In this document: positions 8,646-12,061 of the stretch, one piece after another
How the letters are laid out: the number at the start of each line of letters is the position of its first letter
Position numbering within the stretch: the first letter of the stretch is position 1
Origin: Actinomycetota bacterium
Lineage (GTDB): Bacteria; Actinomycetota; Acidimicrobiia; Spongiisociales; UBA5794
Direction: 5' to 3'
DNA length: 64,000 nucleotides
Assembly: GCA_013151445.1 (NCBI GenBank)
Contig: JAADIG010000005.1
Coordinates: forward strand, 30,838 to 94,837
Notes under the pieces: model-generated
Databases searched by the model: none
What the model saw: only the letters and a program-made list of their open reading frames with translations
What the model was told of the DNA's origin: nothing
Program-made: the position numbers and the translations under genes

Positions 8646-9332
8646 ATGTCCGAGCTCACGCGGTTTGTTGAAACGAGGCTGTCCACAGCCGCCAATGCTG
8701 AGAAAGCCGCAGGTATGACGCGATACATGAAGTCGTCCATGCCTTTTTACGGTGTTCAAAAACCGGGTCGGGATCTCGTCCTGCGTGAGCTGAAGAATGC
8801 CTTTCGGCCTGAGGATTCGCGGGAGTATCACAACGCGGTTCTGGAACTGTGGGGTCTGGCTCATCGCGAGGAGAAGTACCTGGCCATCGCGTACGCCCAA
8901 ACGTTCACGGAGTTCGTCACCATCGACCACCTTGATCTATTCGAGCGGTTGGTACGCGAGGGGGCGTGGTGGGATTTTGTCGACGACATCGCAATTCGCC
9001 TTGTGGGTGTGGTACTTCGTGACGAACCTGAACGGGTTGGCCGAGTGATGGACGACTGGATCTCCGATCCGGACCTGTGGATTCGGCGCACCGCAATAAT
9101 CTGTCAGTTGAAACACAAGACGTTGACAGACCAAGAGCGGCTGTTCCGCTTCTGCCTCGACCGGGGTGGTGAAACCGAGTTCTTCATTCGTAAAGCGATC
9201 GGTTGGGCGTTGCGCGAATACGCCAAAACGGCTCCGGAGGCGGTCACCGGGTTTCTGCTTGACCATGCGTCCGTCTGGTCTGGGTTGACATTTCGCGAGG
9301 CCGCGAAGCATCTCGACATTGACCGCCCCTGA
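8646..9332 (+). CDS. DNA alkylation repair protein (AlkD/AlkC-like HEAT-repeat fold; DNA_alkylation family)
   Basis: 'MSELTRFVETRLS...KYMKSSMPFYGV...WWD...WIRRTAIICQL...FIRKAIGWALREYAK' is typical of PF08713. The ORF-track start at 8265 was rejected because it overlaps the DUF3048 gene. Confidence 0.75.
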   Translation: MSELTRFVETRLSTAANAEKAAGMTRYMKSSMPFYGVQKPGRDLVLRELKNAFRPEDSREYHNAVLELWGLAHREEKYLAIAYAQTFTEFVTIDHLDLFERLVREGAWWDFVDDIAIRLVGVVLRDEPERVGRVMDDWISDPDLWIRRTAIICQLKHKTLTDQERLFRFCLDRGGETEFFIRKAIGWALREYAKTAPEAVTGFLLDHASVWSGLTFREAAKHLDIDRP

Positions 9333-9334
9333 AA

Positions 9335-9359
9335 CCTGCTCAAAGGCAGAACGAGCAGG
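9335..9359. terminator. Hairpin between convergent alkylation-repair gene and sodX (putative bidirectional terminator)
   Basis: CCTGCTC-aaaggcagaac-GAGCAGG, 7-bp stem, in the 33-nt gap between the two stop codons. Confidence 0.3.
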
Positions 9360-9365
9360 ATGACG

Positions 9366-9854
9366 CTAAAGGCGCTGGCGGTGTCGGAGTGGCCAGTACA
9401 CGGCCGTGACTTTCCACAGAGTGTTTGAGCCGTCAACCGGGCCAAATGTGCGCGAGTCGGCGAGGGTGAGCGAACGAGCGTCGCTCAGTACAAAAATATC
9501 ATCCGGCCCGAGATGCCATTCACCGTCGGGGTGGGTCGGTCCGTCGGCCCATGGTTCGGCGAGCACACTGCCATCGATGTGGACCTGGCCTGCGCTGATG
9601 TCGATCGTTTCGCCTGGCAGACCTATCACCCGCTTCACGACGTCCATTTCTGGGTGCTCGGGGTGTTGCACGATTACGACATCACCCCGATTGGGTCGGC
9701 GAGTGAGACGGGTCGCCATCACAAAATCGTCGGGAGCCAACGTTGGCATCATCGACCCTTCCTTGATCAGGTAGCGACGCACGCGTCCCTTCAGCAGGCC
9801 GATCGCTAGAGCGGTAACTGCGAGCAGTCCGGCGACGTTTCTCCGTGTTCTCAT
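9366..9854 (-). CDS. sodX: Signal-peptidase-I-like (S26) protease, putative Ni-SOD maturation protease SodX
   Basis: S26 motifs 'SMMPTL' and 'KRVIGLPGETI'. Divergently adjacent to sodN, as in Streptomyces where SodX removes the SodN leader. ATG at 9854. Confidence 0.7.
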   Translation of the reverse strand: MRTRRNVAGLLAVTALAIGLLKGRVRRYLIKEGSMMPTLAPDDFVMATRLTRRPNRGDVVIVQHPEHPEMDVVKRVIGLPGETIDISAGQVHIDGSVLAEPWADGPTHPDGEWHLGPDDIFVLSDARSLTLADSRTFGPVDGSNTLWKVTAVYWPLRHRQRL

Positions 9855-10021
9855 GGTGCTCCTGTTGCGGTCCCATGACCAGTCTACGTGGAACCATGCA
9901 CAGTTTCGGCGTCCAACGTCTCAGCATTGTGTCGTTCGCCCCACAACGAGATGCATGCGTCATGGGTCGGTGTGCGTGCGGTGTATTGTTGCCCTATCCA
10001 ACCGACCCCTGGAGGTACCTT

Positions 10022-10438
10022 ATGGGATTTTTCCGGCCCACCCGGACAGCACACGCACACTGCGACCTCTTCTGCGGCGTGTACGACCCAGCCCAGGCAA
10101 TGATCGAAGCAAAGTCAGTACTCAAAACCGCTGAAAAGTACCAGGCCTCAGACGACGACGTGTTTCGGGCTCGTTGCATCTCCATCAAGGAGGAACGCGC
10201 CGAACTGGTCAAACATCATCTCAGCGTGTTGTGGACGGACTTCTTCAAACCACACCACGTGGAGCAGTTCCCCGGTCTTCACGATCTGTTCTGGCGTGCA
10301 CTGAAGAAGGCATCGGACGCCAAGAAGTCCATGGACCCGGCAGTGGGACAGGAACTTATTGGTCTGATCGAGGAGATCGCCGTCGTGTTCTGGCAAACCG
10401 AAGAGTCCAAGGCCACGGGAGTGTATCCACCGGCGTAA
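10022..10438 (+). CDS. sodN: Nickel-containing superoxide dismutase precursor
   Basis: A 12-aa leader 'MGFFRPTRTAHA' precedes the Ni-hook 'HCDLFCGVYDPAQA'. The rest aligns to Streptomyces SodN from memory ('KHHLSVLWTDFFKP'). AGGAGG RBS upstream. Confidence 0.9.
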   Translation: MGFFRPTRTAHAHCDLFCGVYDPAQAMIEAKSVLKTAEKYQASDDDVFRARCISIKEERAELVKHHLSVLWTDFFKPHHVEQFPGLHDLFWRALKKASDAKKSMDPAVGQELIGLIEEIAVVFWQTEESKATGVYPPA

Positions 10439-10486: not shown

Positions 10487-12061
10487 CTACGCGTTCGAAC
10501 CCGCCCGTTGTGGTGTGCGGCTGAGCACACCCATGCCAAGCAGAGTCCCGAGTCCCGCCGCAACGTAGATTCCCCCTCCGAGAACGAGTGCAATCGCGGA
10601 ACCGGTCCAGCCGCCGACGGCAGACATCACAACCCGCGCAACCAGGAATGCAGCAATGGCGCCCACCACCGTCGGTGGGATCGCACGTCCGGCCCGGTCG
10701 ATGACACGGCCGACGCGGCCAGCGTTCCCATCGTCGCTGTACCAGAGGTACACCAATGCAGTGGTGTAGATTCCGATCGATATGACGGAGGCAACTGCCA
10801 CGCCGGCCAGACCGTACTCGGCCCGGAACATCACATAGATGGGTATCGCGACGATTGTCGAAACCGTCCCGACCGCCACCGGCACCCACATCTGCCGGCG
10901 GGCGTAGAACGACCGGGTGATGATCTGGAGGATGCCCCACATCGGAATCGAAAAGGCGTAGAAGAAGAGGGCGGTCCCGGAGGCGATGCTGTCTGCGTTG
11001 GTGAAGCTACCCCGCTGAAACTGTGTGCGCATGATGGGCTCCGCCAGTCCTGCGAGGAGGCCGGCGGCCAGGATCGAGAGCACAACCACCCACGAAACTG
11101 CCTTGTCAACCGTTGCGGCGAGCGCCCTTTGTTTGCCTTCGGCGAACAGGCGGGCAAGTGTCGGGTACGCCGCCACGCTGGCGGCCTGGGCGATCGCTCC
11201 GACCGGTACCAGCATCGTTCTCCTGGCGTACTGGAGACGGGTCTGGGCACCATCCCCGACGAGGTCGCCAAAGGCGCTCATGAAGGTTTCGTCGAGGACG
11301 ACGATCGATTGCCCGAGCATGAGCGGGAGCGCAATGATGGCATACTCTCGCAGCACCGGATGAGCCCAGGGGAGGGCAGGGTTGAGCCGCATACCGACAC
11401 GGCGGGCTCCCCACCACTGCACAGCAAAGTTGCCGATTGCGGCACCGATCAACGCTCCCCAAATGAACCCTTCCGGGTCCGGTGTTCCCGTCACGACCGC
11501 ATACAAAACGCCGCCGCTGATAATGCTCACGTTGTAGATGATGGGTGCCAGGGTGGGAATCCAAAAGACCCCTTTTGCATACTGCACGGCCGAGAAGAGG
11601 GCGCCGCTCACGAAAAAGATCTGCGCCGGCAGCACGATCCGAGTCAGTCGAATCGTGTTGATGACCTGCTCGGAAGTGAAGTCGGGATAGAGCTCGTTGA
11701 TGATTCGCGGAGCCAAGACCCAACCGACAACGGTCAGTGCCGAGATCCCTATAACAAGTGGGCGGATGATGGCGGTGAGAGCATCCCATCCGCCCTCCTC
11801 ATCGTCGTTGGCGAGATATCGGGAGAAGATGGGGATGAAGGTGATCGAGAGAAATCCACCTGCGAGCAGGTAATTCATGAAGTCCGGAATTCGGAACGCG
11901 GCGACATACTGGTCGGTGACTTGAGTGGCACCAAGCAGTTGGGCGAAGATCACCTCCCGCAGTTGACCCAACACGCGCGAGATAATGACACCACCCGACA
12001 CGACAAGTGCGGCGGTGCCGAGATGGTTGGTGGACCTGAACAGCTTCTTCACAGAGAGCAA
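10487..12061 (-). CDS. murJ: Lipid II flippase MurJ (MviN)
   Basis: N-terminal 'SRVLGQLREVIFAQLLGATQVTDQYVAAFRIPDFMNYLLAGGFLSITFIPIF' is the MurJ/MOP-superfamily signature. Polytopic membrane protein of ~520 aa. Confidence 0.85.
   Translation of the reverse strand: MLSVKKLFRSTNHLGTAALVVSGGVIISRVLGQLREVIFAQLLGATQVTDQYVAAFRIPDFMNYLLAGGFLSITFIPIFSRYLANDDEEGGWDALTAIIRPLVIGISALTVVGWVLAPRIINELYPDFTSEQVINTIRLTRIVLPAQIFFVSGALFSAVQYAKGVFWIPTLAPIIYNVSIISGGVLYAVVTGTPDPEGFIWGALIGAAIGNFAVQWWGARRVGMRLNPALPWAHPVLREYAIIALPLMLGQSIVVLDETFMSAFGDLVGDGAQTRLQYARRTMLVPVGAIAQAASVAAYPTLARLFAEGKQRALAATVDKAVSWVVVLSILAAGLLAGLAEPIMRTQFQRGSFTNADSIASGTALFFYAFSIPMWGILQIITRSFYARRQMWVPVAVGTVSTIVAIPIYVMFRAEYGLAGVAVASVISIGIYTTALVYLWYSDDGNAGRVGRVIDRAGRAIPPTVVGAIAAFLVARVVMSAVGGWTGSAIALVLGGGIYVAAGLGTLLGMGVLSRTPQRAGSNA

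Follow-up and report, generated by a model that had tools for sequence, protein, structure and literature searches.

The sodN gene and its product

The DNA analysed here is a 64,000-nt stretch (the window) of contig JAADIG010000005.1 from an Actinomycetota bacterium, and our subject is a locus within it that encodes a Ni-superoxide dismutase (NiSOD) and a neighbouring peptidase. The sodN gene (10022–10438, forward strand) specifies an NiSOD precursor of 138 amino acids (aa) plus stop, as recognised from profile, PDB and model matches, and is transcribed divergently from a gene for a 162-aa S26-family peptidase (9366–9854, reverse strand), the probable SodX leader peptidase according to Pfam, synteny and its Ser/Lys motifs. 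The coordinates of both genes leave a shared intergenic region of 167 bp (9855–10021). The Ni-hook of this SodN carries Phe at position 5, where the Streptomyces enzymes have Pro, and SodN proteins without Pro5 form a large subfamily.

SodN scores 137 bits against the Pfam family Sod_Ni (PF09055, E = 6e-40, cut-off 25) and 141 bits against the NCBIfam equivalog TIGR02753 for sodN (cut-off 90), and aligns without gaps over 116 residues with the sequences of the Streptomyces NiSOD crystal structures (55% identity, E ~1e-37). The exact protein is on public record as NOX21566.1, annotated as "superoxide dismutase, Ni" in an Actinobacteria metagenome-assembled genome (MAG), and its close relatives come from hydrothermal-vent metagenomes. 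The precursor is laid out as MGFFRPTRTAHA|HCDLFCGVYDPA..., with the predicted cleavage at the bar: a leader of 12 codons, MGFFRPTRTAHA (10022–10057, forward strand), with Ala at −3 and −1, is followed by HCDLFCGVYDPAQA. The cleavage site is placed by comparison with the leaders of relatives and by analogy with Streptomyces coelicolor SodN (PMC3919588). In the window protein and in all relatives the leader stands directly before His-Cys, and the relatives' leaders, 12–16 aa long, end in A/V-x-A|HC. The ATG lies 6 nt past the GGAGG ribosome-binding site (10011–10015, forward strand), part of an invariant GGAGGT block in the four-way alignment A2. Since this site and a Met-Gly-(Leu/Phe)-Phe start are conserved in relatives, the 138-aa call appears to be the right one; a longer, GTG-started open reading frame (ORF; 9845–10438, 197 aa) was considered as sodN and rejected as a mechanical artefact. 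Some public calls for close relatives (P0001, P0276) are 159 aa long and begin at an upstream in-frame start.

Read directly from the sequence, the Ni-hook His1-Cys2-Asp3-Leu4-Phe5-Cys6-Gly7-Val8-Tyr9 occupies positions 10058–10084 of the forward strand, with the TTC codon of Phe5 at 10070–10072. Eight of its nine positions agree with the motif H-C-x-x-P-C-G-x-Y, and Phe for Pro5 is the sole hook difference from the Streptomyces crystal sequences. The initial annotation had described the same precursor, with its His1/Cys2/Cys6 hook and Phe5, had given Pro as the Streptomyces residue and had delimited the 167-bp intergenic region; the coordinates, the sequence and the alignment to the crystal sequences bear out all of this. 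Among the second-sphere residues, Tyr9, Glu17 and Arg47 are present, and Tyr62, which we take to be a second-sphere residue of NiSOD and which Pro5-type enzymes carry, is replaced in the alignment by Phe (TTC, 10241–10243, forward strand). At its C terminus the protein has an extension, KATGVYPPA (mature residues 118–126; 10409–10435, forward strand), which the alignment shows to be missing from the 117-aa Streptomyces enzyme.

Residue 5 across relatives and the changes linked to it

The hook HCDLFCGVY is found in 118 of the 120 closest protein clusters (90%-identity clusters, 76–96% identical, from many independent metagenomes and MAGs); of the two exceptions, one has HCDLYCGVY and the other keeps Phe5 but has Ala for Gly7. 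A HMMER search of 50%-identity representatives returned 792 related clusters. The representatives listed include 103 whose hook is intact, and these have Pro (88), Tyr (8), Phe (4) or Met (3) as residue 5. In species genomes, one for each species in GTDB, a degenerate DNA pattern encoding H-C-D-x-[any codon with a first base other than C]-C-G-[V/I]-Y-D-P revealed at least 119 loci without Pro5. Among those listed, residue 5 is only ever Tyr (72), Phe (37) or Met (10), encoded by TAC/TAT, TTC/TTT and ATG, respectively. The hosts are mostly Acidimicrobiia, including the cultured Ilumatobacter nonamiensis, together with many cultured, fast-growing Mycobacteriaceae (Mycolicibacterium rhodesiae, M. 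hodleri, M. flavescens, M. elephantis and M. agri; Mycobacterium yunnanensis, M. deserti and M. pinniadriaticum), and a few belong to Saccharimonadia or Euzebya. These proteins make up a large SodN subfamily with the hook HCDL[F/Y/M]CGVYDPA, in which Phe5 is a lineage-typical state. Single MAGs assigned to Gammaproteobacteria (L113), Myxococcota (L012), Micrococcales (L060) and Nanopelagicales (L096) carry sodN genes that group with the Mycobacterium type or the Acidimicrobiia type, reflecting either mis-binned contigs or horizontal transfer.

These distributions bear on whether Phe5 could have arisen through faulty sequencing or assembly, or be a mutation private to this genome that might inactivate the enzyme, as might be argued from the canonical motif and the solved structures, all of which have Pro5; the codons TTC and CCC differ at two bases. 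Recurrence of the residue in the 118 nearest clusters, from independent samples, and of the same residue class in at least 119 species genomes speaks against such an origin. Furthermore, the hook codons beside Phe5 vary synonymously among relatives, whereas Phe is retained as TTC or TTT, with TTC persisting, and the ratio of nonsynonymous to synonymous substitution rates (dN/dS) in pairwise comparisons of the window sodN with three relatives is 0.03–0.09, with synonymous sites saturated. Purifying selection on sodN is strong. The cluster, species-genome and dN/dS data refute an error or private mutation, and the probability that we would still assign to it is practically nil. The substitution singled out in the initial annotation is not confined to this sequence; a large clade is defined by Phe, Tyr or Met at position 5. 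That annotation had named two findings that would overturn the point. One, a sequencing error at the Phe5 codon, is contradicted by the nearest clusters; the other, Phe being common at this position in active NiSODs, is borne out as far as sequence data go, in that Phe is common in this clade.

Loss of Pro5 is accompanied by changes elsewhere in the protein. We aligned 159 mature SodN sequences, comprising 39 with Pro5, 108 "core" sequences without it (123–127 aa) and 12 other non-Pro sequences. The Ni ligands His1, Cys2 and Cys6 are invariant in all 159, and in the core group so are all hook residues from 1 to 4 and from 6 to 12 (His1, Cys2, Asp3, Leu4, Cys6, Gly7, Val8, Tyr9, Asp10, Pro11 and Ala12). 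Position 62 (S. coelicolor numbering) is Tyr in 35 of the 39 Pro5 sequences and Phe in 108 of 108 core sequences; Phe62 is likewise invariant in alignment A1. The core clade also shares a 9-residue C-terminal extension, K-x-x-G-V-Y-P-P-A, which the Pro5 group lacks. Within the core group the tail is highly conserved (G121 in 107 sequences, V122 in 96, Y123 in 107, P124 in 104 and P125 in 101), and G121, Y123, P124 and P125 are invariant in alignment A1. Positions 23, 35, 56, 82 and 87 also tell the Pro5 and core groups apart. Inside the core clade, Tyr5 goes with His83 (68 of 69) and Phe5 with Lys83 (30 of 36), a pairing that may come from contact between the two residues or simply from common descent.

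The 12 other non-Pro sequences are mostly Met5 forms with a mature chain of 116 aa, which mostly keep Tyr62 and lack the tail, so that Pro5 has probably been replaced more than once. In a neighbour-joining tree, the main Phe/Tyr clade (126 aa) stays together as a single block, with the 116-aa Met5 forms elsewhere; this tree is too weak to count origins. In the set of Met5 proteins noted individually (L026, L032, L059, L061, L076, L090 and P0170), the mature chain is about 116 aa long, and both Tyr62 and Trp56 are mostly kept.

For the fold, AlphaFold2 (AF2) was run on mature SodN as a monomer without metal, with an alignment of 33 clade members. The model is a confident four-helix bundle (helices 11–30, 34–66, 74–90 and 94–112), with a mean predicted local distance difference test score (pLDDT) of 88.7. 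In a Foldseek search with this model, the best 16 PDB matches were all Streptomyces NiSODs, with template-modelling (TM) scores of 0.83–0.85 when normalised by the query and 0.91–0.95 when normalised by the target; comparison with 1T6U/3G50 gave TM scores of 0.85/0.92. Confidence is low for the hook (residues 1–7, pLDDT below 50) and the tail (121–126, about 51), and the model has no bearing on cis/trans geometry or on how the tail packs. Apo crystal forms of NiSOD also lack an ordered hook, and low confidence there is therefore expected for a metal-free monomer. Going by the up-down-up-down topology, helix 1 (which follows the hook) and helix 3 would begin, and helix 2 (at residue 62) and helix 4 would end, at one and the same pole of the bundle, so that the tail would emerge beside the hook.

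The divergent peptidase and the intergenic region

The peptidase matches Pfam Peptidase_S26 (PF10502, E = 7e-27), carries the motifs of a catalytic dyad (Ser34 in GSMMPT and Lys74 in VVKRVIG) and is the only S26 homologue within the window. We searched 116 non-Pro sodN loci with a profile built from the S26 partners of the clade. In 106 of them an S26 gene is divergent from and directly adjacent to sodN; among the remaining loci, sodN lies at the edge of the examined DNA in 4, and in 4 Saccharimonadia the S26 gene is immediately downstream on the same strand. The same divergent sodX-sodN pair is present in three closer relatives (L120–L122). This linkage is consistent across classes, which supports a dedicated role in maturation. 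Both the Ser and the Lys motif occur in 96 of the 102 clade partners whose catalytic Ser was located with a regular expression, and 13 of 115 scanned ORFs lack a match to such an expression.

The peptidase could, by contrast, be a general signal peptidase I (LepB) that stands beside sodN by chance, with SodN matured by another enzyme. With 89.5 bits it exceeds the cut-off of 47 set for TIGR02227, the generic model of signal peptidase I, and it fails the SodX model TIGR02754 (42.8 bits, cut-off 63.25, with the match confined to residues 33–80), its public name is "signal peptidase I" (NOX21565.1), and it has an N-terminal hydrophobic segment (residues 7–23, VAGLLAVTALAIGLLKG), as do signal peptidases acting on exported proteins. 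This segment and a stretch of about 129 residues past the catalytic Ser are shared by the partners in the window's own subclade, whereas the Tyr5 clade mostly has short partners, in which about 90 residues follow the Ser and the N terminus is not hydrophobic, as in classical SodX. The adjacency in 106 of the 116 loci across classes, together with the same-strand arrangement in the four Saccharimonadia loci, is not what a chance neighbour would show, and at 162 aa the window peptidase is much shorter than actinobacterial LepB, which in Mycobacterium tuberculosis has about 290 aa. We thus consider the LepB interpretation very improbable and retain that of a SodX. If SodN is the substrate, the catalytic domain must face the cytoplasm, because SodN has no export signal; the charges flanking the segment (+3 before it, +5 after it) suggest that such an orientation would be compatible with the sequence. 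The identification of this neighbour as SodX in the initial annotation holds as to S26 family and linkage to sodN, and falls short as to the TIGR02754 cut-off.

Several features of the neighbourhood were recorded alongside. In one sub-lineage of Acidimicrobiia, with SodN leaders like MRQVT[I/V]AHA, the SodX-like S26 neighbour is about 300 aa long (L010, L011, L013, L021, L024, L029, L062, L071, L087, L115 and L119). The L062 gene (4438–5349) encodes, in its additional C-terminal part, an HhH-GPD base-excision DNA glycosylase domain (Pfam, 4.5e-11), and so joins a protease to a DNA-repair domain next to an oxidative-stress gene. Immediately upstream of sodX, the window has a gene (8655–9332, forward strand) for a DNA_alkylation repair enzyme (PF08713, 5.6e-58), and the same gene family is also found near sodX in L121. 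Taken with the glycosylase fusions, these neighbours hint that DNA-repair genes may be repeatedly associated with sodX. In the three closer relatives, a TPMT/TehB-like methyltransferase gene is situated between the DNA_alkylation gene and sodX (L120, 2771–3388; L121, 2820–3425; L122, 719–1351); at that place the window has 33 bp only (9333–9365) and the methyltransferase gene is missing. On the other side, a gene for the lipid II flippase MurJ (10487–12061, reverse strand) converges on sodN with 48 bp between the stop codons, in which no terminator-like hairpin was detected. The order sodN, murJ, ATP-binding cassette transporter is also seen in one of the three closer relatives (L120).

Within the intergenic region, the only upstream elements conserved among relatives, in 29 related regions and in the four-way alignment, are the GGAGG ribosome-binding site and a −10-like element, GTATTGT (9983–9989, forward strand; TAnnGT core at 9984–9989), 32 nt upstream of the sodN ATG. 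In 26 of the 29 regions (mean 1.5 and maximum 5 in shuffles), the pattern GTA[TG][TGC]GT stands 34–56 nt before the start codon; it is usually preceded by (A)GT and is also conserved in alignment A2. By its sequence and conservation, GTATTGT would be an actinobacterial −10 element of the TAnnnT type, a putative promoter giving a leader of about 25 nt. The window spacer is longer than those of L120–L122 (167 bp versus 94–124 bp), and its extra 40–60 nt (roughly 9895–9940) have no counterpart there. An E. coli-type sigma-70 promoter scan found no match in 9855–10021. A terminator-like match inside sodX was discarded, being at chance level.

The initial annotation expected a nickel-responsive box of the Nur/Fur type in this region. 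An operator of that or another kind, controlling both sodN and sodX, would fit the Ni-dependent expression of sodN in Streptomyces (PMC3919588), and small inverted repeats flank the −10-like element: the palindrome GATGCATGCGTC at 9950–9961 and an 11-nt repeat at 9961–9971 / 10001–10011. These repeats, however, are not conserved in L120–L122, and conservation is limited to the −10-like element and the ribosome-binding site. The search for a Nur box, TTGCAA-N5-TTGCAA with up to 3 mismatches, yielded no site in 9855–10021, contrary to that expectation, and the 8 such sites in the whole window are fewer than the 11.3 expected by chance. In S. coelicolor, moreover, Nur does not bind at sodN, which itself has no Nur box; Nur represses sodF, and the small RNA s-SodF, derived from the 3' untranslated region of sodF, pairs with the sodN leader and destabilises its mRNA (PMC3919588). 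By analogy with this indirect control, no Nur box would be predicted at sodN. Complements of at least 12 nt to the sodN leader are absent from the rest of the 64-kb window, where the longest has 11 nt, about the chance level. Rfam reported no family at gathering thresholds across the window and only chance-level matches around the locus, and screening the window ORFs with regular expressions for Fur-like, NiCoT, Fe/Mn-SOD and Cu/Zn-SOD (superoxide dismutase, SOD) signatures, a weak test, gave no match. We consider a nickel-responsive operator in the 167-bp region quite unlikely.

The nickel site and known systems

We consider it likely that the locus encodes a functional NiSOD precursor, SodN, and a dedicated S26-type leader peptidase, SodX, transcribed divergently. 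Judged from sequence, the two are probably a real NiSOD/SodX pair from a variant subfamily, with an active enzyme. SodX would remove the 12-residue leader after Ala-His-Ala and expose His1. Nickel would then be bound, with His1 contributing its free amine and its imidazole, Cys2 its amide nitrogen and its thiolate, and Cys6 its thiolate. The Leu4-Pro5 bond, which is cis in the crystal structures, is said, in work going back to Barondeau in 2004 and Schmidt in 2008, to help close the NiSOD hook. Here closure would be achieved through a Leu4-Phe5 bond that is either trans, like the corresponding bond of active Ni-peptide mimics, or one of the rare cis bonds that do not involve proline. Peptide models whose Leu4-Pro5 bond is trans form the N2S2 site, bind Ni and are catalytically active, so that loss of Pro is compatible with Ni binding, and in the native enzyme Glu17 and Arg47 are the hydrogen-bond partners of His1 (PMC5722923). 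Residue 5, which is bulky, would sit with residue 62 and the C-terminal tail at that end of the four-helix bundle where the hook lies, and the three may form a re-packed second shell around Ni; such re-packing, not neutral drift, is suggested because only large hydrophobic or aromatic residues replace Pro5, together with Phe62 and a Tyr-bearing tail. Expression would proceed from the conserved −10-like promoter, with a short leader, a strong ribosome-binding site and no recognisable nickel operator.

Proteins with Phe, Tyr or Met at position 5 might instead work differently, as poor or inactive SODs or with altered redox properties, substrate access or metal handling, owing to loss of the cis-Pro5 turn and of Tyr62. 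The changes at position 5, the replacement of Tyr62 by Phe and the new Tyr-containing tail do cluster at the active-site pole, biochemistry of the clade was not found in the literature searched, and the mycobacterial hosts have other SODs. Yet the hook, Ni ligands included, is invariant apart from position 5, sodN is under strong purifying selection, and a leader peptidase, needed only to expose His1 for Ni, is kept in nearly every locus. In addition, Ni-peptide mimics whose bond before residue 5 is trans do catalyse the reaction (PMC5722923). We therefore regard a different function as unlikely and favour the active NiSOD/SodX pair.

Several points weigh against this preferred interpretation. 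Packing of the hook against the tail is deduced from the bundle topology, since both parts have low confidence in the AF2 model, and the NiSOD entries in PDB comprise only Streptomyces Pro5 enzymes and their mutants, with no structure having Phe, Tyr or Met at position 5. The presence of sodN in cultured mycobacteria is no proof of activity, because of their other SODs. To these are added the sub-threshold SodX score of the peptidase, its hydrophobic segment and an orientation of the catalytic domain that is only suggested by charge.

A more specific proposal is that the three linked changes mark a structurally re-wired Ni site, in which the hook is closed without a cis-proline, the tail is folded over the hook, and Tyr123 of the tail (or, in enzymes of the Tyr type, Tyr5) takes the place of Tyr62 beside Tyr9. 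We put this forward tentatively, as a possibility that is more doubtful than the activity of the enzyme; if true, nature would have found a second way of building the NiSOD active site, one in which substrate gating or peroxide tolerance might differ.

Within its own genome the locus is an ordinary one, an oxidative-stress enzyme with its maturation protease, and NiSOD and SodX are both well known; the candidate for novelty is the Pro5-less subfamily with Phe62 and the GVYPPA tail. We found no description of a Pro5-less NiSOD or of HCDL[F/Y/M]CGVY in the literature searched, which covers little of the subscription-journal work on NiSOD diversity, and an earlier mention is possible. The motif H-C-x-x-P-C-G-x-Y is used as a diagnostic NiSOD signature, and structural and mechanistic work rests on the Streptomyces Pro5 enzymes. 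Acidimicrobiia are abundant in marine, sponge and sediment communities, and motif-based surveys may under-count the Pro5-less clade in this class. What the cis-Pro5 turn does, and how the Tyr9/Tyr62 pair contributes to gating and proton delivery, are both debated, and the clade offers a natural experiment on these questions, with cultured hosts (Mycolicibacterium rhodesiae, M. hodleri, M. flavescens and Ilumatobacter nonamiensis) opening it to direct test. The interest for bioinorganic chemists and for metagenome surveys of SOD types is moderate.

Compared with known systems, the locus resembles the S. coelicolor Nur/s-SodF system in the short 5' leader and strong ribosome-binding site upstream of sodN and in the divergent sodX (PMC3919588), but differs from it in that no Nur box, sodF or anti-sodN complement was detected within the 64-kb window. 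Similarly to SodX of the SCO5255 type (TIGR02754), the S26 Ser/Lys peptidase is divergent beside sodN, and small residues occupy positions −3 and −1 of the leader (PMC3919588); unlike SodX, the peptidase scores under the TIGR02754 cut-off and over the generic signal peptidase I cut-off, it is longer (162 aa), and it has an N-terminal hydrophobic segment, which is missing from most SodX partners of the same SodN clade. In Ni-hook "maquettes" of the HCDLPCGVY type, residues 1, 2 and 6 suffice for N2S2 Ni binding and catalysis, with a trans bond before residue 5 (PMC5722923), although these are synthetic, keep Pro5, are much slower than the enzyme and lack the protein second shell. The closest likeness in sequence and predicted fold is to the S. 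coelicolor and S. seoulensis NiSODs (1T6U, 1Q0D), with 55% identity over the mature protein, a leader followed by His1-Cys2...Cys6, the residues Tyr9, Glu17 and Arg47 and the four-helix bundle, from which the window SodN is set apart by Phe5 for Pro5, Phe62 for Tyr62, a leader of 12 instead of 14 aa and a mature chain of 126 instead of 117 aa that ends in the conserved GVYPPA tail.

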